A stretch of DNA of 64,000 bases. Origin: Anaerolineales bacterium. GTDB lineage: Bacteria > Chloroflexota > Anaerolineae > Anaerolineales > E44-bin32. The notes under the pieces are model-generated. The model did no database searches and was not told where the DNA came from. It saw only the letters and a list, made by a program, of their open reading frames with translations. Positions 1,649-45,301 of this stretch are shown here, in pieces; positions within the stretch are counted from its first letter, which is position 1, and each line of letters starts with the position of its first letter. Where the stretch lies: positions 19,016 through 83,015 of the forward strand of contig DAOUEJ010000216.1 in NCBI GenBank assembly GCA_034430615.1, written 5' to 3'. The position numbers and the translations under genes were made by a program.

Positions 1649-3454
1649 ATGCCGATGAACGAAATCCCCAAGCGTGCCCAGATCGATTCGCGTTACACCT
1701 GGAACCGGGAGAGCATGTACCCAACATCTGAAGCCTGGGAGCAGGCCTTCGAGAGCGCGCGGGAGGAGATCGATGCCTACGCGGGTTTACATGAGGACTT
1801 CACCAGCAATGCCGTGAACCTGCGGAACGCGCTTAATTCTGCCTTCGAACTGCACAACCTGGTCGAGCGCGTGATGCTCTACGCCGCACTCGAATTCAGT
1901 GTTGATACAACCGACGATGAGTCTGCGGGCAGGAACAGCCGGGCTCGCAAGCTGCAAGCCGACGCCCGATCTGCAACCTCCTTCCTTGACCCCGGCATCT
2001 TGCAACTCGGCCAACCTACCGTGCTCACATGGATGGATGAAGAACCCGGCTTGAGAATTTACACCCATTATCTGAACGATCTTTTTCGCAAGGCCAAACA
2101 CGTCCGCTCTGAAGAAGTCGAGGCTTTGTTGGGCATGATCAATGATCCTTTCTCCGGGACCAGCAACACGGTTAGTATGCTGACCAACGCCGATATGCAC
2201 TTCGGCAGTGCGCGAGATTCGCAGGGCAGTGAGTTCCAGATCACACAAGGCTCTGTCCCTACGCTCATGACCCGTCCCGACCGGACACTGCGCCAGAACA
2301 CATGGGAGCGGTACCGCGATCGCTACCTTGAATATAAGAACACCCTCGCCAGCAGTCTCGAGACTTCGACCAAGCAGGCTGTATTTGTTGCCCGCGCGCG
2401 CGGCCACGAGTCAACCCTTCAAGCCGCGCTCTACCCCCATAACCTTCCGACCGAAGTGTTCCACAACCTGCTGGCTACCTTCGAAGAGCATCTTCCAGTC
2501 TGGCACCGCTACTTCTCACTCCGCAAGCGCCTGCTCGGGCTCGAGCAGCTACAGCTCTATGATGTCTGGGCACCGCTGACGGAAAACCCGCCTGAAATCT
2601 CCTTCGAACAAGCCATCGACTTTATCTGTGAGGGTCTTACTCCTCTTGGTGAGGAATACGTGGATACGCTTCGGCGCGGCGCACTGGAGAAACGCTGGAT
2701 CGATGTCTTCCCCAACCAGGGCAAACGGCAGGGCGCTTTCTCCTGGGGGACACCCGGAACACATCCTTTTATCGTGATGAACTACGACAACACTCTCTTC
2801 AGCTTGAGTACGCTGGCGCATGAACTCGGGCATTCGATGCACAGCTACCTGTGCTGGAAGACACAACCCCTGGTTTACGCTGACTATTCGTTATTCGTGG
2901 CGGAGGTTGCCTCCAATATGCATCAGGCCTTGGTGCGGGCATACCTGCTTGAGACTCAGGCTGATCCTGACTTTCAGATCGCATTGATTGAAGAAGCCAT
3001 GTCAAATTTCCACCGCTACTTACTTCAGATGCCAACCCTGGCTCGGTTTGAATGGCAAATGCACCAGGATGTGAGTGCTGGCCGTGGGCTGACGAGCACC
3101 TCCTTGATCGAATGTATGGCCGATCTCTTCCAGGAAGCCTACGGTGAGGCAATGGAGATCGACCGTCCACGCGTGGGTATAACCTGGGCCACATTTGGGC
3201 ACCTTTACGTCTATTTCTATGTCTTTCAGTACGCGACAGGCATCGCCGCAGCTCAGGCGCTTGCCGCCCGTTTGCTCTCGGGTGAACAGGGGGCACGCGA
3301 TGGCTACCTCGAATTCCTGCGCTGTGGAGGTGCTCGTTACCCACTGGACGCCCTCGATCTGGCAGGCGTCGATCTCCGGACACCGGAGATCATAGCCGAG
3401 GCTTTCAATGTCTTGACACGGCTTACCGATCGATTGGAATCGTTGACGTCATGA
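1649..3454 (+). CDS. pepF: Oligoendopeptidase F, M3B family zinc metallopeptidase
   Basis: 601 aa. Zinc motif HELGH occurs in STLAHELGHSMHSY. An aaggaagg RBS precedes the ATG. Length and overall pattern are typical of PepF. Confidence 0.9.
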   Translation: MPMNEIPKRAQIDSRYTWNRESMYPTSEAWEQAFESAREEIDAYAGLHEDFTSNAVNLRNALNSAFELHNLVERVMLYAALEFSVDTTDDESAGRNSRARKLQADARSATSFLDPGILQLGQPTVLTWMDEEPGLRIYTHYLNDLFRKAKHVRSEEVEALLGMINDPFSGTSNTVSMLTNADMHFGSARDSQGSEFQITQGSVPTLMTRPDRTLRQNTWERYRDRYLEYKNTLASSLETSTKQAVFVARARGHESTLQAALYPHNLPTEVFHNLLATFEEHLPVWHRYFSLRKRLLGLEQLQLYDVWAPLTENPPEISFEQAIDFICEGLTPLGEEYVDTLRRGALEKRWIDVFPNQGKRQGAFSWGTPGTHPFIVMNYDNTLFSLSTLAHELGHSMHSYLCWKTQPLVYADYSLFVAEVASNMHQALVRAYLLETQADPDFQIALIEEAMSNFHRYLLQMPTLARFEWQMHQDVSAGRGLTSTSLIECMADLFQEAYGEAMEIDRPRVGITWATFGHLYVYFYVFQYATGIAAAQALAARLLSGEQGARDGYLEFLRCGGARYPLDALDLAGVDLRTPEIIAEAFNVLTRLTDRLESLTS

Positions 3455-3505
3455 ACCGGGCTGGTTGAACAAAGCGCGGAGTTCGAAGTTTGAGGAAGGA
3501 ATAGC

Positions 3506-3742
3506 TCAGCGGCTGATCAGCACGCTGACAATGAGGATGCCGTTGTAAATATTGTGGGAATGGGAAACGATCTGCCAGCCCTCCCCGGCCATCGCTTCCA
3601 GGCGTTTTTGGAGCAGTCCTTCGATTTCGGAGAATGCAACCCGCACTTCAGGCACCTGCTCGCTCATCGTTTCAACAACAGCTCGCATCTTCAACCGGTG
3701 AGTAAAAACAAGTGTCTTGAATTCAGCACCTGATGCGGTCAT
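3506..3742 (-). CDS. Small hypothetical protein (78 aa)
   Basis: An aaggagag RBS lies 6 nt before the ATG. The C-terminal EGWQIVS segment resembles small DUF4177-like proteins, but the family is not resolved. Confidence 0.5.
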   Translation of the reverse strand: MTASGAEFKTLVFTHRLKMRAVVETMSEQVPEVRVAFSEIEGLLQKRLEAMAGEGWQIVSHSHNIYNGILIVSVLISR

Positions 3743-3923
3743 GGAGATCTCTCCTTCGTGCTTCCCTGATCCGGCTCTCAGGGAATCGCTCTCGCCGGCT
3801 TACCTCACCAGAACCCGGGCCGTGTGAGCCAGCCGGGATTTCATCCACAGGCTGGCTCACACGTGCAGCGAGGCACCGTTTGTACTGCAAGGTCTATGCC
3901 TACTCGGACTGCCAGCAAGAACA

Positions 3924-3954
3924 CTATGAGCGACCTGCAGGAGGTCGCTCATAG
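3924..3954 (-). terminator. Perfect 12-bp inverted repeat hairpin (ctatgagcgacc-tgcagga-ggtcgctcatag), candidate terminator of the 4016..4234 gene
   Basis: The inverted repeat was read directly. It lies about 60 nt downstream of the minus-strand stop. Only a weak T-rich tail (tgttcttgc) follows it on the minus strand. Confidence 0.4.
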
Positions 3955-4015
3955 ATACAAACCGAGCCTTTATTTGCGATCAGCGCCCGTGAGGAACAAT
4001 TCGTGGGCGCCCGCA

Positions 4016-4234
4016 CTAGCCTGAGCGACTCCCGGAGGTATGGGTCAGGCTCTTGAAAAAACCATGTCCATAGGCACGGGCAATTGCATCCAGGCCGTGC
4101 ATCGAGACCGCTGTGCGCCTCCCGCTGCGGAGATCCACATAAGTTGCTCGATCCAGATTCTGCGGACAATTGATGTCACGCATCATCTCGGCCAGGCGCT
4201 GCCGGTTTTCGTCACTTAGAAGGAATTCTGCCAT
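4016..4234 (-). CDS. Hypothetical protein (72 aa from MAEFLL...)
   Basis: Sub-ORF of track ORF 4016..4282. The internal ATG at 4234 is preceded by ggtgaggg. No recognisable motif. Confidence 0.4.
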   Translation of the reverse strand: MAEFLLSDENRQRLAEMMRDINCPQNLDRATYVDLRSGRRTAVSMHGLDAIARAYGHGFFKSLTHTSGSRSG

Positions 4235-4298
4235 CGCTTTGCCCTCACCAGGTGATAACGTGTTCACGCCAACAAGATGCAAGCTTTATGCCATCTGC

Positions 4299-4326
4299 TT
4301 GACCTCTACCCCGTCGTTCGTAGAAT
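4299..4326 (+). promoter_or_regulatory. Candidate sigma70-type promoter, TTGACC-16 nt-TAGAAT
   Basis: The hexamers were read directly, about 150 nt upstream of the 4476 start. There is no other support. Confidence 0.3.
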
Positions 4327-4475
4327 CCAATTCAAGTCCATTTGGGTTCGCCCCAGGTGAGGGAATCGCTCTACAACTCTTATCCATAGGCTTCTTCAGT
4401 GCACCGGATGCGCTGGTGCAGTGTTCTTTCCCTTAACGGGGCTAGATCAAAGATTGTAGGTAGGAAGGAAAAGTA

Positions 4476-6986
4476 ATGAAACGGAAGCTGCGCGGTTTTA
4501 AACCGAAAGCGATCGGGCTTGACTTTAACCTTTACCGGGTTGAGGTACCGATCACAGGCGTCTCCGATTCACACTTAAGTGTGGTCGATGTCTGGCCGGA
4601 GGGGGTCGACCGGACGGTGCTATTCGTCCACGGATATGCGGGTGTCGCTGAAACCTGGGAATACCAGATCAACCATTTCATGCAGTTTGCGCGCGTCGTC
4701 GCCCCGGATTTACGCGGTCACGGTCAGAGTGATGCGCCCTACACCCAGTACACGATGCCCGAACTGGTCAGTGATCTCGAGACGATTACCGCCTACCTTG
4801 ATTTCCCCCAACGCTTCACGCTCGTCGGCCACTCGTTTGGCGGCTCGATCTGCATCGAGTATGCAGCCCTCCATCCTGAACGGCTCGACAAGTTGGTCCT
4901 GCTCACAACTGCCGGGGAGTATCCACTACCCCGCGCGGCCCAGCTACTATCGCGTGTACCGACTGCTGCCTTCCGCCCGCTGTGGCGCTTCCGCCCGCGC
5001 TGGAACGCCGAAGTGCATGTGATGAAACGTATGATGCTCAACAACCTGCGCAAATGGCAGGGTTGGGATGCGATGAGCAAGATTAGAACACCGACTTTGA
5101 TCGTGACCGGTGAACGAGATCGCTACTTCCCGAAATCGGTTTACCAGCGTGTGGCCACCAGTATTCCCGGGGCGGAAGTGGTCGACATCGGGGCTTCCAA
5201 GCATAAGGTCCAACTTGAGCGCCACCAGGCGGTCAACCGTGCCATCGAGCGCTTCATCCTCGGGGAGGTAGACGGTCACCGCCACAGCTGGCGCGAGAAC
5301 ACCCTGGCTCCCACCGTCCACCCGGAACGCCCCTGGCTGCGCAGCTACGGCAAACACACACCCTTCTCGATCCCCATCCCCCGTCAACCTCTGCACAGTT
5401 TCCTCGAAGTTGCTGCCGACTGGCTCCCGAAACAGGTTGCGACCGTGTTCTACGGGTCTGAGCTTACCTATCAGCAACTCAACCGCCAGGTCAACCAATT
5501 TGCCCATGCCCTACATGGCTTGGGAGTCAGTCCCGGTGACCGGGTGATGGTGGTTCTGCCCAATATGCCCCAGCTCATCATCGCCTACTATGCCACGCTC
5601 AAAATCGGCGGTGTGGTCGTCCTGCCCAACCCCGACGCCTCTGGGGAAAGCCTGCTCGGCCAGGTCCGCATGACCGGTGCCCGGGTGCTCGTCACTCTGA
5701 GTGAGTTCAGCGCACTGGCTGGTCTCATCAGCGAGAAGACCGATACCCGGGTCGTCCTTGCCTCACTTCGCAACGCCGTTTCGGGGCGAACCTACAAACA
5801 ACTGATGGCCCGCTGGGAAGCGGCCGGCTTCCAATCCGCGCGCGAGGACAGCGAGCATGCGGTCGGGATTCAAATGGATCGTTTGATGATGGATGCCTCC
5901 TGGGATTCCCCTTCCGTGAAGGTCCGGCATGATGACCCCGCAGCAATCCTCTTCACGAGTGGAACGACAGACGAACCTAAGGGTGTCTGCCTGACCCACG
6001 CCAACCTTGTCGCCAACGCGCTGCAGACCCGTCACTGGATCCCGGAGCTGGAGACCGGAAAGGAGACATTCATGGCTGTCATACCGCTCACGCACAGCTA
6101 TGGCATGACCAGTGCCATGAACATCCCGATCGCCATGGCGGCGACGATCATCCTGCTCCCGGTCTTTGAACTTGATCAAGTACTCGAACATATCAAGGCT
6201 TACAAGCCAACCATCTTCCCCGGTGTACCCTCGATTTACATGGCCCTGAACCAGGCTCCGAATGTACGCGAGTACGGGCTCGAGTCGATAAAGGCCTGTA
6301 TCAGCGGCGCAGCACCACTGCCAATCGAAGTCCAGGAGACCTTTGAAAAGCTCACCCACGGCCGCCTGGTGGAGGGTTATGGCTTGACGGAAGCTTCTCC
6401 GGTGACCCATGCCTACCCCTTTGATGGACCGGAAAAACCGGGCTCGATGGGCATCCCCATCCCTGGAACAGAGGCGCGCATCGTCGACCTGGTCAGCGGT
6501 GAGCCGCTTTCACCCGGACAAGTCGGCGAACTGCTTGTGCGCGGGCCGCAGGTTATGCAGGGCTACTGGGCAGGTCCGGATCACGAACCAAACCAGGATT
6601 CACTGAAGGACGGCTGGCTTTATACGGGCGATGTTGCAGTCATGGATAGTGAAGGCTTCTTCACGATCATCAGCCGCAAGCGTGACACCATCATGGCTGG
6701 CGAGTTCAGCGTTTACCCGCGCGACGTTGAGGAAGTGCTTTACGAGAACAGTAAGGTGCTCGAGGTAGCGGTGGTTGGGGTCCAGTCCGAAGATGGCGGG
6801 CAGAAGGTCAAGGCCTTCGTCGTCCCACGCCCGGGAATGGACCTCTCGGAGGAGGAGCTGCTCGAACTCTGCCGCAGGCGGTTGGAACCCTACGCTGTAC
6901 CCTGGGAGATCGAATTTCGCAGCGAGCTTCCAAAATCATTCGTCGGCAAGGTGCTGCGCAGGATGTTGGTCGAGCACCCCTCATGA
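4476..6986 (+). CDS. Fusion protein: N-terminal alpha/beta hydrolase + C-terminal long-chain acyl-CoA synthetase (AMP-binding, FadD-like)
   Basis: 836 aa. The N-terminal ~270 aa has VLFVHGYAG and the nucleophile elbow GHSFGG. From about residue 300 it has the adenylation motifs FTSGTTDEPKGVCLTH, GYGLTE and YTGD, and the C-terminal KSFVGKVLRR. Confidence 0.85.
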   Translation: MKRKLRGFKPKAIGLDFNLYRVEVPITGVSDSHLSVVDVWPEGVDRTVLFVHGYAGVAETWEYQINHFMQFARVVAPDLRGHGQSDAPYTQYTMPELVSDLETITAYLDFPQRFTLVGHSFGGSICIEYAALHPERLDKLVLLTTAGEYPLPRAAQLLSRVPTAAFRPLWRFRPRWNAEVHVMKRMMLNNLRKWQGWDAMSKIRTPTLIVTGERDRYFPKSVYQRVATSIPGAEVVDIGASKHKVQLERHQAVNRAIERFILGEVDGHRHSWRENTLAPTVHPERPWLRSYGKHTPFSIPIPRQPLHSFLEVAADWLPKQVATVFYGSELTYQQLNRQVNQFAHALHGLGVSPGDRVMVVLPNMPQLIIAYYATLKIGGVVVLPNPDASGESLLGQVRMTGARVLVTLSEFSALAGLISEKTDTRVVLASLRNAVSGRTYKQLMARWEAAGFQSAREDSEHAVGIQMDRLMMDASWDSPSVKVRHDDPAAILFTSGTTDEPKGVCLTHANLVANALQTRHWIPELETGKETFMAVIPLTHSYGMTSAMNIPIAMAATIILLPVFELDQVLEHIKAYKPTIFPGVPSIYMALNQAPNVREYGLESIKACISGAAPLPIEVQETFEKLTHGRLVEGYGLTEASPVTHAYPFDGPEKPGSMGIPIPGTEARIVDLVSGEPLSPGQVGELLVRGPQVMQGYWAGPDHEPNQDSLKDGWLYTGDVAVMDSEGFFTIISRKRDTIMAGEFSVYPRDVEEVLYENSKVLEVAVVGVQSEDGGQKVKAFVVPRPGMDLSEEELLELCRRRLEPYAVPWEIEFRSELPKSFVGKVLRRMLVEHPS

Positions 6987-9743: not shown

Positions 9744-10631
9744 ATGGTCGTCGACAGCTTCAAATACCTGCCGCGCCTGATCGCCGCGTTCTACCAGATG
9801 GCGGAGGTTGAACCCCGCCGGCCGATTCCATGGACCCCTATGTCCGGTCCACTCGACCAATGCACGTTTGGTCTGGTCACCTCGGCCGGCCTCTACGCTG
9901 CTAATACCGACAGCCCATTCGATGTCGAGCGCGAACGACTTGAACCGACCTGGGGCGATCCCAGTTTCCGCCGCATCACGAAAGATATATCAACCGAGGA
10001 CCTCGCCATCAGCCACCTGCACCTCAACACGGCCGACATCCAGCGCGATCCCAATATCGTCTTCCCCCGCGAGCGGATGGAAGAACTGGTGGAAAACGGT
10101 CGCATTGGAGGACTGGCTGAAGAGAATTTCTCCTTCATGGGCTACCAGGGCTACCCGCCCGATACGAAAGCCTGGGAGCAGAAGTATGGTCCCCAGGTAG
10201 CCCAGGCGCTCAAGAGTGCTGGTGTCCAATGCGTCATCCTCACCCCGGTGTGACCAGATTGCGCCATCAACGTGCCCGTGCTGGCGCGTACACTCGAAGC
10301 CGCTGGACTCTCAACAATCCTGATCACGATGATGCCAGTTTGGGCAGAAGCGATCGGCGTCCCCCGAACACTCGCAGTCGAATTTCCGTTCGGTCATACC
10401 CTTGGGGCTCCCGGTGACACAGCGCAACAGCTGCGCGTGCTATCACAAGCACTTGGTATCCTTGAGCAGGCGACCGAACCCGGGTATATCGAACACAGCC
10501 TTGAAACATGGCACGAACCCTTGGATGCGGCCATTAAGTCCTGGCAGCCTGCTGAACCTTCTCCGATCATCGCCGAACTGTCGCCCAAGTTCCGTGAGAT
10601 GCTCCGCTCAAGGCGCCGGAACCGTTCATAG
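9744..10631 (+). CDS. PrdB/GrdB-family reductase selenoprotein B homolog with in-frame UGA (Sec) at 10251..10253
   Basis: Track ORFs 9720..10253 and 10272..10631 are in the same frame and are separated only by TGA. The joined sequence reads ...SAGVQCVILTPV-U-PDCAINVPVLARTLEAAGLSTILI..., a U-x-x-C motif. Flanking blocks (PIPWTP, LVTSAGL, FPRERMEELVENGRIG, AGLSTI) match my recollection of D-proline reductase PrdB, whose Sec lies in TAG-U-GTC. ATG 9744 has a ggag RBS. Confidence 0.8.
10260..10288 (+). promoter_or_regulatory. SECIS-like stem-loop downstream of UGA 10251..10253
   Basis: u-gcgcca / uggcgc-g outer stem with an inner acg-ugcc-cgu apex. It starts 7 nt after the UGA, with the apex about 20 nt after it. 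Folded by eye only. Confidence 0.4.
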
Positions 10632-15746: not shown

Positions 15747-17503
15747 ACGATTGTAGGGGCTGTCCCAAAAGGGCAGCCCCATTCGCGTTTTAAGAGCAAA
15801 TCACTAGAATGGGGGACATGAAAAAGAAGAAAAGTCCACACGCTGTGTTCAAACCCTACACGATGGGCCAGCTGCAGCTCCCTACGAATCTAGAAGACCT
15901 CATCCCCGATGGTCACCTGGTGAGAAGGGTGCATGAAGCGATTGAGCGGGTGAATCTAGATCCCCTGATCCAGCAATACAAAGGGGGAGGGACCAGCAGC
16001 TACCATCCGAAGATGATGTTGAAGGTGCTGGTGTATGCCTACACCCAGCAGATCTACTCGTCACGGAAGATTGCCAAGGCGCTGCGGGAGAACATCCACT
16101 TCATGTGGATCAGCGGGAACAGCAGGCCGGACTTCCGCACGATCAACCGCTTCCGGGGCGAAGTGCTCGGGAAGGTGATGGCCGAGATCTTCACTGCGGT
16201 TCTCGAGCTGCTGATCGAAGAAGGCTATGTGAAGCTGGAGCATTATTTCCTGGACGGGACGAAGATCGAAGCCAATGCGGGCAAGTACACCTATGTGTGG
16301 GCGAAGAGCACGAAGCGAAACAAGGGCCAGTTGCAGGCGAAAGTGAAGCAGCTGCTGGAAGAGATCGAGCGGGTGAACAAGGACGAAGAAGAGGAGTATG
16401 GAGATCGTGATCTTGAAGAGCTGGGCGAAGAAGCTGAGATCGACGCCGACCGATTGGACAAGAAGGTCAAGGAGCTGGACGAGATCCTCCAGCGCGGATT
16501 GAGTGAAGGGGAGAAAAAGCCGGACAAGCGCGACAAGAAACGTGCGAAAGCCCTGAGGATCCTGGAGAAGGAATGCCTACCCCGCCTGCGAAAGTATGAA
16601 GAACAGGAGCGGATCCTGCAGGGACGGGGCAGCTATTCGAAGACGGATGAGGAAGCTACCTTCATGCGCATGAAGGATGATCCTCTGCGGAAGGCGCAGC
16701 TCAAGCCTGCCTATACCATCCTGGCACAGGGCAACCTCCAGTTGGGGACCGAGAACCAGTTTGTGGTTGGACTGAGTGTTCATCAGCGGCCGGGAGACAC
16801 AGGCTGTATGGTGCCGCATATGGAAGGGGTGAAAGCCCGCCTCGGCCGGCTTCCGGAGAAAGTCGTCGCGGACGCTGGTTATGGCAGCGAAGAGAACTAT
16901 GTCTACCTGGAAGAGCGAGGTGTGGAAGGCTTCGTGAAGTACAACACCTTCCACCAGGAACAGAAGAAGCGGAGCCGGAAGACGCGTTTCCTCGCCGAGC
17001 AGTTCCCTTACAACGAAGAGAAGGATGAGTTCATCTGTCCGGATGGGCGACGCATGCTCTATCGTGAGACAAGCCGATACAGGACAGAGAATAACTACTT
17101 GAAGGAAGTCCGCGTCTACGAGTGTGAAGGCTGCGCCGGGTGTAGGCTTCGCGCCGAGTGTACACATTCGAAGGAAAACAGACGCATTCGTGTGAGCTTT
17201 GTGCTGCAAGAATTGCGTGCAAAGGCCAGAGATCGTTTGCTCTCCGAAGAAGGGTTGGCTTTGCGTTCCAGACGCCCTGTGGAAGCGGAAAGCGTATTTG
17301 GGAGATTGAAACAGAATTGGCAGTTCAGAAGGTTGATGCTCCGGGGATTGAGAAAAGTAGAGACCGAGCTTAGCCTGCTCTGCATTGCACACAACCTATC
17401 AAAAATGACGGTTGCATAGCCGCCGTTCTTTTTTTTGCCACGCAAAAGTATGGAGAAAGGGCCGTCCAAGCTTCTTTTTGGACGGCCCCTACGGGTATCG
17501 TTG
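15747..17503 (+). mobile_element. IS1182-family insertion sequence (approximate ends)
   Basis: A single transposase ORF is flanked by inverted termini: aacgat..GTAGGGGCTGTCCCAAAAGGGCAGCCCC on the left and GGGCCGTCCAAGCTTCTTTTTGGACGGCCCCTAC..atcgtt on the right. I could not identify a target-site duplication. Confidence 0.7.
15809..17419 (+). CDS. IS1182-family (IS5-like DDE) transposase
   Basis: 536 aa. The N-terminus reads YTMGQLQLPTNLEDLIPDGHLVRRV...YHPKMMLKVLVYAYTQQIYSSRKIA. A central charged coiled region is followed by ADAGYGSEENY and the C-terminal LRGLRKVETELSLLCIAHNL. Confidence 0.9.
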   Translation: MGDMKKKKSPHAVFKPYTMGQLQLPTNLEDLIPDGHLVRRVHEAIERVNLDPLIQQYKGGGTSSYHPKMMLKVLVYAYTQQIYSSRKIAKALRENIHFMWISGNSRPDFRTINRFRGEVLGKVMAEIFTAVLELLIEEGYVKLEHYFLDGTKIEANAGKYTYVWAKSTKRNKGQLQAKVKQLLEEIERVNKDEEEEYGDRDLEELGEEAEIDADRLDKKVKELDEILQRGLSEGEKKPDKRDKKRAKALRILEKECLPRLRKYEEQERILQGRGSYSKTDEEATFMRMKDDPLRKAQLKPAYTILAQGNLQLGTENQFVVGLSVHQRPGDTGCMVPHMEGVKARLGRLPEKVVADAGYGSEENYVYLEERGVEGFVKYNTFHQEQKKRSRKTRFLAEQFPYNEEKDEFICPDGRRMLYRETSRYRTENNYLKEVRVYECEGCAGCRLRAECTHSKENRRIRVSFVLQELRAKARDRLLSEEGLALRSRRPVEAESVFGRLKQNWQFRRLMLRGLRKVETELSLLCIAHNLSKMTVA

Positions 17504-26324: not shown

Positions 26325-26762
26325 TCAGCGTTCGAGCAGCACCGTAACCGGCCCATCGTTCTCGATCTCGACCAGCATTTGGGCTCCAAAGACGCCCTCA
26401 GCCACCGATAGATTCTGCTGGCGCAGACGTTTTGCAAATGCTGCCACAAGCGGTTCGGCAAGATCTGGTGAAGCGGCCTCGATGAAGCTTGGCCTTCGTC
26501 CCTTGTGTGTATCGGCGTAGAGAGTAAACTGCGAGATTACCATCACCTCACCCCCCACCTCGGCCAGGGAAAGGTTCATCTTCCCATCCAGGTCTTCGAA
26601 GATCCTCAGGGCGGCACACTTGTCTGCCACCCAGACGGCAGTTTCCTGATCATCATCCTTGCCAATGCCAAGCAGGATCACGAGACCCTTCCCGATAGCG
26701 CCAACCTCTGCTCCATCGATCGTCACCCGGCCTCGCCTGACGCGCTGAAGGACTGCTCGCAT
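26325..26762 (-). CDS. dtd: D-aminoacyl-tRNA deacylase
   Basis: MRAVLQRVRRGRVTIDG...GKGLVILLGIGKDD...ISQFTLYADT..GRRPSF is the canonical Dtd pattern over 145 aa. Confidence 0.9.
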   Translation of the reverse strand: MRAVLQRVRRGRVTIDGAEVGAIGKGLVILLGIGKDDDQETAVWVADKCAALRIFEDLDGKMNLSLAEVGGEVMVISQFTLYADTHKGRRPSFIEAASPDLAEPLVAAFAKRLRQQNLSVAEGVFGAQMLVEIENDGPVTVLLER

Positions 26763-26807
26763 GGGATACCTTTCCCTGATCAGGGATAAAGGCGATCAGA
26801 ATGATAT

Positions 26808-27050
26808 TTATCTTTTAAGGGCTTTGCCCACCAACTCGACCAACGCATCTGGCTCAATGTGGCTGCCGGTCTGCAGTTTTGAGTAGACCAGGTCCTCGCC
26901 CACCAGCACCTCGAAACGCCCCCCATCGGAGGGGATGAGTGCAATCGAGCTGACTTTGAATTCAAATGCCTTCAAGAGTTCGGCCATCGCACCGATGGCG
27001 CGGTCTGTATAGTGTCAAACTGCGCAGTACTCGATCGAGATCTCAACCAT
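26808..27050 (-). CDS. SelW-like (Rdx family) selenoprotein, C-x-x-U motif, Sec encoded by UGA at 27017..27015
   Basis: Not in the ORF track. A ggagggag RBS lies 5 nt before ATG 27050. Translation: MVEISIEYCAV-U-HYTDRAIGAMAELLKAFEFKVSSIALIPSDGGRFEVLVGEDLVYSKLQTGSHIEPDALVELVGKALKR, stop TAA 26810..26808. This matches the Rdx/SelW pattern: N-terminal beta strand, CxxC/U, then GG.FEV..G.L.(Y/W)SK. Confidence 0.85.
26983..26999 (-). promoter_or_regulatory. SECIS-like hairpin gccaucg-GUG-cgauggc, 15 nt downstream of UGA 27017..27015
   Basis: A 7-bp perfect stem read directly. A G/U-containing apex at this distance from the UGA fits a bacterial SECIS. Folded by eye only. Confidence 0.45.
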
Positions 27051-27189
27051 ATTTTCTCCCTCCAATATGCGTAATGTGCTGTATCTGCGTGCAACAGCAA
27101 GGAGTATACTGTATCGAACCCATCCGGCAATCCGGGAAAGTCTTGGGGCCCAGGGTCAAGTGTGCGATAATAGCGGAAGGAGGTGAAGT

Positions 27190-32202: not shown

Positions 32203-32227
32203 GGCACAGCGATGCCGTGCCCTCTAT
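32203..32227 (-). repeat. REP-like unit with degenerate head, ATAGAGGGCACGGC-ATC-GCTGTGCC, at the 3' flank of rayT
   Basis: On the minus strand it resembles the GTAGGGGCACGGC unit at 32780 and is in inverted orientation to it. The TAG of the head is the rayT stop codon (32226..32224). Confidence 0.55.
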
Positions 32228-32766
32228 GAATCTGGTATGTAATATGGGTCCAAACGCCAGCGGATAGAATTTTCGGTGATGTAGCATCGGATGCGGTTAA
32301 GTTTCGCCTCGTCCCGGATCACATGTTCGTAGTAATTGCGCTGCCAGACGATGAAATGCAGATCACGGTGAAATCGCCTCACGCCTGTCGTAACCGATCC
32401 TTTGAATTGCCCGATAATCGAGCCGAGTGACCGGGGAGGCCGATGTAGGGGCGCATCGCGATGCGCCCCTACTGGAACCGGCTTGTCCGATTCGTCAGTA
32501 ATTTGGATTATTAAGTGAACGTGGTTTGGCATGATAACAAATCGATCTATTTCGATACCACGTCTAAGGATTTGAAATCTCTTCAGTTCGTCCTCGACTA
32601 TCAATCCGATGGGTGAAAGAAATAATCTTTCCTCGGATATCTCGCTAAGGATTTGCCGCTTGTGAAAGGCACATATCGTCACGAAATACGCGCCGGGTCG
32701 GGTGTAATCGTACCCGGGCAAGCGCGTTGATCGCCGGCGATTTGGATGGTCGCTGGATCCGGTCAC
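32224..32766 (-). CDS. rayT: REP-associated tyrosine transposase (RayT / IS200-like Y1 transposase family)
   Basis: RLPGYDYTRPGAYFVTICAFHKRQ, HUH motif MPNHVHLII, C-terminal VWQRNYYEHVIRDE (catalytic Tyr region). Flanked by inverted GTAG-headed palindromes. Confidence 0.85.
   Translation of the reverse strand: MTGSSDHPNRRRSTRLPGYDYTRPGAYFVTICAFHKRQILSEISEERLFLSPIGLIVEDELKRFQILRRGIEIDRFVIMPNHVHLIIQITDESDKPVPVGAHRDAPLHRPPRSLGSIIGQFKGSVTTGVRRFHRDLHFIVWQRNYYEHVIRDEAKLNRIRCYITENSIRWRLDPYYIPDS
32445..32472. repeat. Perfect 28-nt palindrome GTAGGGGCGCATCGCGATGCGCCCCTAC inside the rayT coding sequence
   Basis: Read directly. It encodes VGAHRDAPLH just after the HUH motif. It has the same GTAGGGGC head as the intergenic REP-like units. 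Confidence 0.8.
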
Positions 32767-35570: not shown

Positions 35571-35590
35571 GCCGCTATTCAATTTTCAGG

Positions 35591-35663
35591 TGGACCCAGT
35601 GGGATTCGAACCCACGACCTTCTCAATGCCATTGAGACGCGCTCCCAACTGCGCTATGGGCCC
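35591..35663 (-). tRNA. tRNA-Ala (anticodon GGC)
   Basis: Folded by hand into a 73-nt cloverleaf: GGGCCCA-TA-GCGC-AGTTGGGA-GCGC-G-TCTCA-ATGGCAT-TGAGA-AGGTC-GTGGG-TTCGAAT-CCCAC-TGGGTCC-A. G3:U70 identity pair present. CCA is not encoded. Confidence 0.9.
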
Positions 35664-35676
35664 ATGCAAGTTCAGG

Positions 35677-35749
35677 TGGACCTGGCGGGATTCGAACCCG
35701 CGACCTCATCAGTGCGATTGATGCGCGCTCCCAACTGCGCTACAGGCCC
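35677..35749 (-). tRNA. tRNA-Ala (anticodon CGC)
   Basis: Folded by hand into a 73-nt cloverleaf: GGGCCTG-TA-GCGC-AGTTGGGA-GCGC-G-CATCA-ATCGCAC-TGATG-AGGTC-GCGGG-TTCGAAT-CCCGC-CAGGTCC-A. G3:U70 present. CCA is not encoded. Confidence 0.9.
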
Positions 35750-43815: not shown

Positions 43816-44384
43816 TCCGCAGGGCGCTGTTCGAACTCAAGTACTTGCTGGGTAATGCGCCGTGGGATACAGGTATTTCACCCCCTGAGTTGTTGGCGTA
43901 CCTCGAATCGGCACCGGTTGGTCTCGCCATCGACCTCGGCTGTGGCACCGGGACAAACGCGATCACCATGGCCCAACATAACTGGACCGTTCTCGGGGTT
44001 GACCTCTCACCGATTGCCATCCGGCGGGCCCGCAGGAAGGCAACCACGCTCGCTCTGCCAATTGAATTCAAACGAATGGATGTTGCCCTGCTGCCTGGCG
44101 TACAAGGCCCATTTGACCTGGCGCTCGATATTGGCTGCTACCATTCGCTCCCGGTCCCAGATCGGGCAAGCTACCGCTCCAGGCTCGAGTCTCTCCTGCC
44201 CGCAGGAGCGGATTACCTGCTTTACGCCTGGCTTCCCAGCCAAGAGGACGGCGACAGCAATCCATCTCCCGAGGTTGAAATTCGTGAAGAATTCGAATCT
44301 TGCTTTAGCATCCTTTCGACCGCCGAAGGCACGGATCATGGTCGGACATCAGCCTGGTTCCAGATGCGGCGGAAGCCCACATGA
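43812..44384 (+). CDS. Class I SAM-dependent methyltransferase
   Basis: Motif I AIDLGCGTGTNAITMA and post-I VLGVDLSPIAI. ATGA overlap with the upstream gene. Confidence 0.8.
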   Translation: MIRRALFELKYLLGNAPWDTGISPPELLAYLESAPVGLAIDLGCGTGTNAITMAQHNWTVLGVDLSPIAIRRARRKATTLALPIEFKRMDVALLPGVQGPFDLALDIGCYHSLPVPDRASYRSRLESLLPAGADYLLYAWLPSQEDGDSNPSPEVEIREEFESCFSILSTAEGTDHGRTSAWFQMRRKPT

Positions 44385-45301
44385 ATGTGCTGGTGATGTT
44401 CCTAGACGGCGTCGGACTTGGCGAACGCGACCCTTCCATCAATCCGTTCTGCGCTGCGCATCTTCCAACGTTGCAGGGTTTGCTGGAGGGCGAACAGTTG
44501 GTGCTGGCTGCAGCACCCTTCGAAGGGAAAGATGCAACGCTGCTCGCTCTTGATGCCAACCTCGGCGTCGAAGGAACACCGCAATCCGCCTCCGGGCAGG
44601 CCACATTGTTGACAGGGAAAAACGTTCCGGCCCGGATAGGCGTTCACTACGGGCCTAAGCCCAACTCACCCATTCGGGAGATCCTTACAGAGGACAACCT
44701 CTTCATGCAAGTGCGCTCTCACGGCGGAACTGCTGCTTTGCTAAATGCCTATCCGCCGCGCTACTTCGAAGCAATCGATTCGGGCCGCCGGTTACGCTCG
44801 GCCATACCGTTCGCGTTCCACGCTGCCGGTCTGCCCTTGATGACGGCCGAGGACCTGCAGGCCGGCCGCGCGCTGTCGGTAGATTTCACGGGGCGGGGTT
44901 GGGCCGATCAGCCCGGTTTTCCCCCCGCGCCTGTTTATGGGCTGGAGCAAGCCGGAGGCGTGTTGGCCGGTCTTGCTGACAAGTACAGTCTCAGCTGGTT
45001 CGACTTCTGGCCCAGTGACTATGCCGGTCATAAACAGGATCACAAGCGGGCGGTGGATATCCTCGAATCCTTCGATGCCGTGTTTGGAGGATTGGTCCAG
45101 GCCTGGCGTGGTAAACCACGGTTAATCGTCCTGACCTCTGACCATGGCAACCTGGAGGATCTCAGCCAGCGCATGCACACGCGCAACCCAGTCCCAGCAC
45201 TGTTGATCGGTCCTCATACTGTTCGGGCTCGCTTCGCTCGCAGGTTGCATGATCTGGCAGATCTAATGCCGGCTGTGATGGATATCCTTTTTGGTGAATA
45301 G
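44381..45301 (+). CDS. Metalloenzyme-superfamily (alkaline-phosphatase core; cofactor-independent phosphoglycerate mutase / phosphopentomutase-like) protein
   Basis: VLVMFLDGVGLGERD at the N-terminus and LIVLTSDHGNLED near the C-terminus are the metal-binding blocks of this superfamily. Confidence 0.6.
   Translation: MNVLVMFLDGVGLGERDPSINPFCAAHLPTLQGLLEGEQLVLAAAPFEGKDATLLALDANLGVEGTPQSASGQATLLTGKNVPARIGVHYGPKPNSPIREILTEDNLFMQVRSHGGTAALLNAYPPRYFEAIDSGRRLRSAIPFAFHAAGLPLMTAEDLQAGRALSVDFTGRGWADQPGFPPAPVYGLEQAGGVLAGLADKYSLSWFDFWPSDYAGHKQDHKRAVDILESFDAVFGGLVQAWRGKPRLIVLTSDHGNLEDLSQRMHTRNPVPALLIGPHTVRARFARRLHDLADLMPAVMDILFGE

Follow-up and report, generated by a model that had tools for sequence, protein, structure and literature searches.

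According to our analysis, the window (the whole 64-kb stretch of DNA analyzed here) carries on its minus strand a short gene, referred to below as rdx, whose reading frame passes through an in-frame TGA. Its translation begins with MVEISIEYCAV, reaches the TGA at codon 12, continues with HYTDRAIGAMAELLKAFEFKVSSIALIPSDGGRFEVLVGEDLVYSKLQTGSHIEPDALVELVGKALKR and closes at a TAA; the residues following position 12 start with HYTDRAIGAM, and the C terminus ends in KALKR. A Shine-Dalgarno site of the ggagggag type precedes the start codon (Table 1). The sole open reading frame (ORF) of at least 60 amino acids listed at the locus is a 61-amino-acid ORF in the wrong frame (26780..26965), while the in-frame remnant 26808..26987 encodes 59 amino acids and falls below the 60-amino-acid display threshold. 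The Shine-Dalgarno site, the TGA-interrupted frame, and the wrong-frame ORF had been described in an earlier note on this DNA, whose statements about the sequence were each confirmed.

Table 1 Features of the rdx locus and of the second TGA-interrupted gene, in window coordinates
Feature	Position	Strand	Basis or remark
Proposed full CDS of the SelW-like/Rdx selenoprotein	26808..27050	-	80 residues including Sec12; translation, Pfam, TIGR02174, full-length conservation in 89 loci
Shine-Dalgarno site GGAGGGAG	27063..27056	-	5 nt 5' of the start codon; direct reading
Start codon ATG	27050..27048	-	
Cys9 codon TGC	27024..27026	-	First residue of the CxxU redox motif
In-frame TGA, proposed selenocysteine codon (residue 12)	27015..27017	-	Same-column conservation; alignment to the second Cys of CxxC
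Putative bacterial SECIS hairpin	26981..27002	-	MFE fold, pairing conservation, compensatory changes
Internal ATG (Met22), false start of gene callers	26985..26987	-	Yields the 59-amino-acid P0001
Stop codon TAA of rdx	26810..26808	-	
dtd (D-aminoacyl-tRNA deacylase)	26325..26762	-	45 nt past the rdx stop; Pfam Tyr_Deacylase 3e-55, TIGR00256 171.7 bits
Sigma-70-like promoter match TTGCCG-16-TATACT	27103..27130	-	Consensus scan alone; no evidence of function
PrdB-like ORF	9744..10631	+	TGA at 10251..10253, U-P-D-C motif; GRDB PF07355 match

The spacer between rdx and the downstream gene dtd contains no terminator-like site, and the two genes are likely co-transcribed. A genome scan with one genome per species returned 518 relatives, the best 80 of which were analyzed; all of these are Chloroflexota, mostly Anaerolineales metagenome-assembled genomes (MAGs), together with the cultured Anaerolinea thermolimosa IMO-1. 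Among these best 80 (loci L009 to L088), dtd lies downstream of rdx on the same strand in 70 genomes, and trpS, encoding tryptophan-tRNA ligase, is found between the two in 57; rdx stands directly before dtd in 13 genomes, among which are the window's lineage and closer relatives. In one Anaerolineae MAG (locus L071), where TrpS scores 290.7 bits on TIGR00233, the rdx-trpS-dtd arrangement spans positions 3001..4688. From this gene order, one might speculate that a Sec-UGA located 12 codons into rdx makes the expression of trpS and dtd selenium- and SelB-dependent, or that Rdx is the dedicated redox partner of their products. We consider this very improbable; either possibility would, if true, provide the first bacterial function for the Rdx family.

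Elsewhere, the window contains a DDE-type transposase (DDE_Tnp_1_6/DUF772; 15809..17419, plus strand) and a weak IS200-like Y1 transposase remnant adjoining leuS (32224..32766, minus strand). Two long plus-strand ORFs in different frames, 43855..44553 and 44381..45301, share about 170 nt, and the match of the second to the Metalloenzyme profile (PF01676) is confined to the C-terminal half of the profile; together they may represent a frameshifted or mis-assembled phosphomutase-type gene.

Protein family and predicted fold

When U is replaced by C, the rdx product matches the Pfam family Rdx (PF10262) with an E value of 2e-18 and 66.8 bits, against a cutoff of 22.6, over profile positions 1 to 73 of 74. 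The truncated 59-residue remnant also exceeds the threshold with 41.6 bits, covering profile positions 22 to 73 only. The N-terminal 21 residues are hence worth an additional 25 bits and, because the coverage starts at position 1 instead of 22, the residues upstream of Met22, also the ones preceding the TGA, are deemed part of the domain. The NCBIfam model TIGR02174 (CXXU_selWTH) was passed as well (46.5 bits; cutoff, 34.2). The match to the equivalog NF041051 (SelTWH_Campy) stayed at 63 bits, below its cutoff of 88, and the protein is thus related to this Campylobacter-type equivalog without being a member of it. The Rdx/SelW-like family assignment made in the earlier note is borne out by the PF10262 match from the first profile position and by the TIGR02174 score.

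In the Protein Data Bank, the best sequence matches are 3dex (SAV_2001), 2fa8 (Atu0228), and 2p0g ("selenoprotein W-related"), all of which are bacterial Rdx proteins. In these alignments, C9-A-V-U12 falls on the CTQC/CRQC motifs, with Cys9 aligned to the first and Sec12 to the second Cys of the CxxC of the solved proteins. The proposal that the UGA occupies the second redox position is supported by this alignment.

The fold was assessed on the AF2 model of P0004, a full-length orthologue that is 61% identical and carries W at the Sec site. The model has a pLDDT of 91.3 and the topology beta1(2-9)-alpha1(12-29)-beta2-beta3-beta4-alpha2, in which the CxxU motif is placed where beta1 meets alpha1. 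Foldseek aligned it to 2fa8, 3dex, 2obk, and 2p0g with TM scores of 0.86 to 0.92 and an rmsd of about 1.3 Å, and to mouse SelW (2npb) with a TM score of 0.74; thioredoxins rank lower. Judging from this model, the gene product is predicted to adopt the thioredoxin-like Rdx fold.

Conservation of the TGA and of the hairpin that follows it

The protein database returned 49 homologues, nearly all 57 to 62 amino acids long and starting after the TGA; the 59-amino-acid P0001 and about 45 homologues have been deposited in this shortened form. Only two database homologues, P0004 and P0010, are "full-length," and both show W exactly at the Sec column. Their DNA has TGA at this position, hence the W stems from a gene caller that treated TGA as Trp on a short contig.

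At the DNA level, TGA was found at the identical column in 89 of 89 examined loci from Anaerolineae/Chloroflexota, the genome loci being those of the best 80 of 518 relatives. The orthologues, from about 80 species, are 53 to 85% identical and have intact ORFs on either side of the TGA, which always lies 28 codons 5' of an invariant PSDGG motif and within YCAV-U-HYTDRA. No locus has a Cys orthologue at the Sec position (0/89). Two outcomes that the earlier note named as refuting its reading did not occur: the alignment of homologues extends upstream of the TGA, and in none of the 89 loci is the TGA replaced by a sense codon or displaced.

The 7-bp hairpin with a GUG apex that the earlier note had placed 15 nt after the UGA was found again, and its pairing is kept through compensatory changes. 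The stem GCCAUCG-GUG-CGAUGGC pairs 26999..26993 with 26989..26983 around the apical loop GUG (26992..26990); two outer pairs, C27002-G26981 and G27001-C26982, are set off by the single bulged nucleotide C27000. The main stem begins 15 nt past the UGA and the outer pairs 12 nt past it. The 66-nt post-UGA segment folds with -18.5 kcal/mol (z = -2.2 versus dinucleotide shuffles). The synonymous recoding control gave z = -1.2 for the window gene and a mean of -1.1 over 83 genes, neither being significant, and two other gene regions show similar mean folding energies. The stability of the hairpin alone is weakly unusual, and it was not used as evidence.

Individual folds of 80 post-UGA segments show, in nearly all cases, a hairpin of 6 to 8 bp with a small apical loop containing GU. 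The hairpin occurs in two registers. In register A, the window type, the stem occupies columns 19-25/29-35 and the loop reads GUG, GUC, or GUU. In register B, where columns 15-20(21)/(25)26-31 form the stem and the loop is CGUGA or GUG, the hairpin starts exactly 11 nt past the UGA. Over columns 15-37, the registers are mutually exclusive within the one orthologous group, with 42 segments in A, 31 in B, and 7 ambiguous. In the course of the clade's evolution, the hairpin seems to have moved by 4 nt, with the protein alignment unchanged. RNAalifold found no consensus structure over all 80 segments, since the two registers coexist, and explicit structures were scored instead.

Scored over the orthologues, the window structure has 81% of its cells paired, versus 19 to 49% in controls in which the 3' partners were slid by 1 to 3 columns, and double-sided changes are seen in five of nine pairs. 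All seven stem pairs are kept in 39 of the 42 register-A sequences, through A-U/G-C, C-G/U-A, and U-A/C-G exchanges. These exchanges force coupled amino acid changes, from Ile...Met to Val...Thr/Ala, which keep pair 22-32 (Fisher p = 1.5e-10; like the other covariation figures, this value is uncorrected for phylogeny). The third-position entropy of the Ala codon within the stem is 0.46, compared with 1.88 for the Ala codon at position -2. As a within-gene control, we took each predicted hairpin of the window gene and counted the orthologues in which all pairs are kept: the post-UGA hairpin is fully kept in 54% of them and the other hairpins in 1 to 9%. The conservation of this hairpin is exceptional within the gene. 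The register-A loop contains GU in every case; the GU sits on constrained codon positions (Gly/Ser and Val), and its invariance is therefore partly a coding effect.

Rfam scans of the locus, at the gathering threshold and in permissive local mode, gave no match to a SECIS family; to our knowledge, Rfam contains no bacterial SECIS model. The hairpin has the features described for bacterial SECIS elements, namely, a stem-loop right after the UGA and a small apical loop with a G (PMC1088965).

Decoding of the UGA and alternative readings

With the reading frame, the family, the modeled fold, the UGA conservation, and the conservation and covariation of the hairpin documented above, we consider it highly probable that the locus encodes a Sec-containing, 80-residue SelW-like protein of the Rdx (SelW/SelT/SelH) family. 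The mechanism that we propose is drawn from established bacterial Sec decoding, as regards the SelB/SECIS interplay, the incorporation of selenium, and the redox chemistry. The ribosome would start at ATG 27050 and pass the UGA at 27017..27015 without terminating; the coding-region hairpin 12 to 15 nt past the UGA, with its GU apical loop, would serve as the bacterial SECIS and recruit SelB-GTP-Sec-tRNA(Sec), so that selenocysteine is inserted at residue 12. The resulting Cys9-x-x-Sec12 center, at the beta1/alpha1 junction of a thioredoxin-fold oxidoreductase, may alternate between the selenenylsulfide and the selenol/thiol forms, reducing or oxidizing a thiol substrate. The remaining doubt mainly concerns recoding to a residue other than Sec, or decoding machinery missing in this genome.

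When we inspected the 64-kb window for this machinery by Pfam, ARAGORN, and Rfam, neither selA, selB, and selD nor tRNA-Sec was found. The Pfam profile search was run in four batches over 40 window genes; none of the 46 window genes scanned is SelA, SelB, or SelD, and the sole translational GTPase among them is EF-G. Contigs of the same organism beyond the window ends (about 8 kb on the left and 5 kb on the right) contain no sel genes. ARAGORN detected no tRNA-Sec in the window or in any of the loci, and the only window tRNAs are a tandem tRNA-Ala pair with anticodons GGC and CGC, 11 nt apart (35589..35749, minus strand). A tblastn search of 0.63 Mb of DNA with E. coli SelA, SelB, and SelD queries yielded only a selD fragment in L071. 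Located some 3 kb downstream from rdx, this selD N terminus (5990..6237) reads IRLTSLSSCAG-U-ASKL..., with an in-frame TGA in place of the catalytic Cys codon. Two frame changes distribute it over three reading frames, and these could be assembly indels or the mark of a decaying gene.

The second Sec gene claimed in the earlier note, on the plus strand of the window, is real, being PrdB-like with a conserved TGA. By sequence comparison, this ORF belongs to the glycine/sarcosine/betaine/proline reductase selenoprotein B family; as it scores 140 bits on TIGR04483, an equivalog with a cutoff of 300, it is classed as PrdB-like and not as PrdB. For more than 100 Anaerolineae homologues, the annotated product is a 169-amino-acid fragment that ends at the TGA; at that position, one homologue reads W and another reads C. 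The hairpin after this TGA, in a segment begun after the TGA, was not significant by shuffling (z = -0.16), and no prdA-like gene was seen near the ORF. The annotations of Anaerolineales MAGs include SelD fragments, Chloroflexi have been listed among the Sec-decoding phyla (PMC1794560, PMC5322559), and an 8/4-type tRNA-Sec has been reported in Chloroflexi (PMC5389517). The second TGA gene, the selD of L071, the SelD fragments in MAGs, and this literature make Sec decoding plausible in this lineage, and we infer a functional Sec system in this organism.

Recoding of the UGA to a residue other than Sec, either to Cys by a tRNA-Sec-like tRNA acting via SelB or to Trp by near-cognate read-through, would agree with the lack of Sec machinery in the window and about 13 kb of flanks, and the hairpin would be required in this case as well. 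SelB-dependent insertion of Cys at Sec codons was reportedly described by Mukai and colleagues in 2016 for some bacteria. We nevertheless regard such recoding as very improbable, given that relatives carry selD with a TGA at its own catalytic position and that selenoproteins are well established in this family (PMC1088965, PMC1794560); moreover, a Trp in place of the second redox residue would destroy the CxxC/U chemistry.

If the TGA were a true stop, the gene would be the 59-residue ORF starting at ATG 26987, exactly as gene callers have it, and the 11 codons before the TGA would be a leader or a very small ORF of their own; the truncated ORF passes the Pfam threshold by itself, as noted above. 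Such a product, however, would be devoid of strand beta1 and of the entire redox motif, and the internal ATG used by the gene callers is present in just 36 of 83 orthologues. The codon-by-codon analysis, which comprised the 83 distinct genes among the examined loci, argues further against this reading, since purifying selection acts on the amino acids that the upstream codons encode, and these codons have their own Shine-Dalgarno site and ATG. All 83 orthologues have Tyr(-4) and Cys(-3), whose codons vary only synonymously at the third position (TGC/TGT for Cys), and Ala(-2) and Val(-1) are conserved at 94 to 95% with free third positions. Codons -11 to -1 as a whole vary at third positions only, and conservation drops sharply upstream of the ATG. 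Codon -11 is ATG in 62 of the 83 orthologues, and an SD-like core precedes the equivalent ATG in 76 of 78. The identical TGA column in all loci, together with the third-position-only variation of the flanking codons, indicates that the TGA is there by more than chance, and we hold a true stop to be most improbable.

A pseudogene with a nonsense mutation, which a stop 12 codons into the gene resembles when one sequence is viewed, and a genome-wide reassignment of TGA (code 4 or 25), as applied by the pipelines that translated P0004 and P0010 with W, are both effectively refuted and have a negligible probability, since the TGA is conserved at the same column in all 89 loci between intact ORFs and since TGA is the commonest ordinary stop in the window, ending 20 of 35 Pfam-supported genes, so that the organism uses the standard code. 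The database homologues, the conservation of the locus, the codon analysis, and the genetic code thus lead us to discard all three of these readings, namely, the true stop, the pseudogene, and the reassigned code.

Annotation and comparison with known systems

Gene callers shorten rdx because its proposed active-site Sec is encoded by an in-frame UGA, and for the purposes of annotation this means that rdx and at least 45 database homologues have been deposited as fragments of 57 to 62 residues without the active site. In the same lineage, the annotations of hundreds of PrdB-like genes also stop at the TGA. Selenoproteins are consequently missed in a systematic manner in Anaerolineae MAGs, and this truncation is the main point that the gene brings to light. 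Close homologues carry the JGI names "predicted Rdx family selenoprotein" and "selT/selW/selH-like putative selenoprotein" and the NCBI name "SelT/SelW/SelH family protein." The clade data set, with its 80 genomes, two SECIS registers, and compensatory changes, could be used to train bacterial SECIS models.

The SECIS of E. coli fdhF, as reportedly characterized by Liu and colleagues in 1998 and by Huttenhofer and Bock, is a coding-region hairpin about 11 nt past the UGA with a GU apical loop. The hairpin described here is similar to it in its position within the coding sequence and in its GU apical loop, which reads GGUCU in many orthologues, with a distance from the UGA of 11 nt in register B and of 12/15 nt in the window. 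The two differ in that they share no sequence similarity and that the present stem is shorter and has no evident bulged U, the window hairpin having a bulged C.

Compared with the Cys-containing Rdx proteins 3dex, 2fa8, 2p0g, and 2obk, to which identity is 25 to 38%, the gene product would have the same fold, according to the orthologue model, and the motif at the same position; these proteins, however, have a CxxC (CTQC/CRQC) and no recoding, whereas here the motif is C-A-V-U with the proposed Sec second. With mammalian SelW (mouse, 2npb), SelT, SelH, and Rdx12, it would share the Rdx fold and the CxxU motif (TM score, 0.74) at an identity of about 22%, and the gene belongs to a bacterial orthologous group and not to SelW proper. 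In eukaryotes, the SECIS is found in the 3' untranslated region and has another structure (PMC1088965), unlike the window hairpin, which is found in the coding sequence.

The closest likeness is to the bacterial SelW-like CXXU selenoproteins (PMC1088965, PMC1794560), which also have about 80 amino acids, an N-terminal CxxU, an Rdx domain, and an in-frame UGA with a stem-loop in the coding region directly behind it, whose small apical loop contains a G. These proteins occur in many sequenced bacteria, and their Cys orthologues are rare in Sec users (PMC1088965, PMC1794560), in line with the absence of Cys orthologues from the 89 loci. In the Sargasso Sea survey, they ranked first in abundance among the selenoprotein families, with 48 genes (PMC1088965), and a survey of 2006 counted only three selenoproteins in Chloroflexota (PMC1794560). 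Given that the family was already abundant in the 2005 survey, the biological novelty is small: the gene is an ordinary further member of the SelW-like family known since 2005 and shows no essential difference from it, its clade being from Anaerolineae and having the putative SECIS in two registers.
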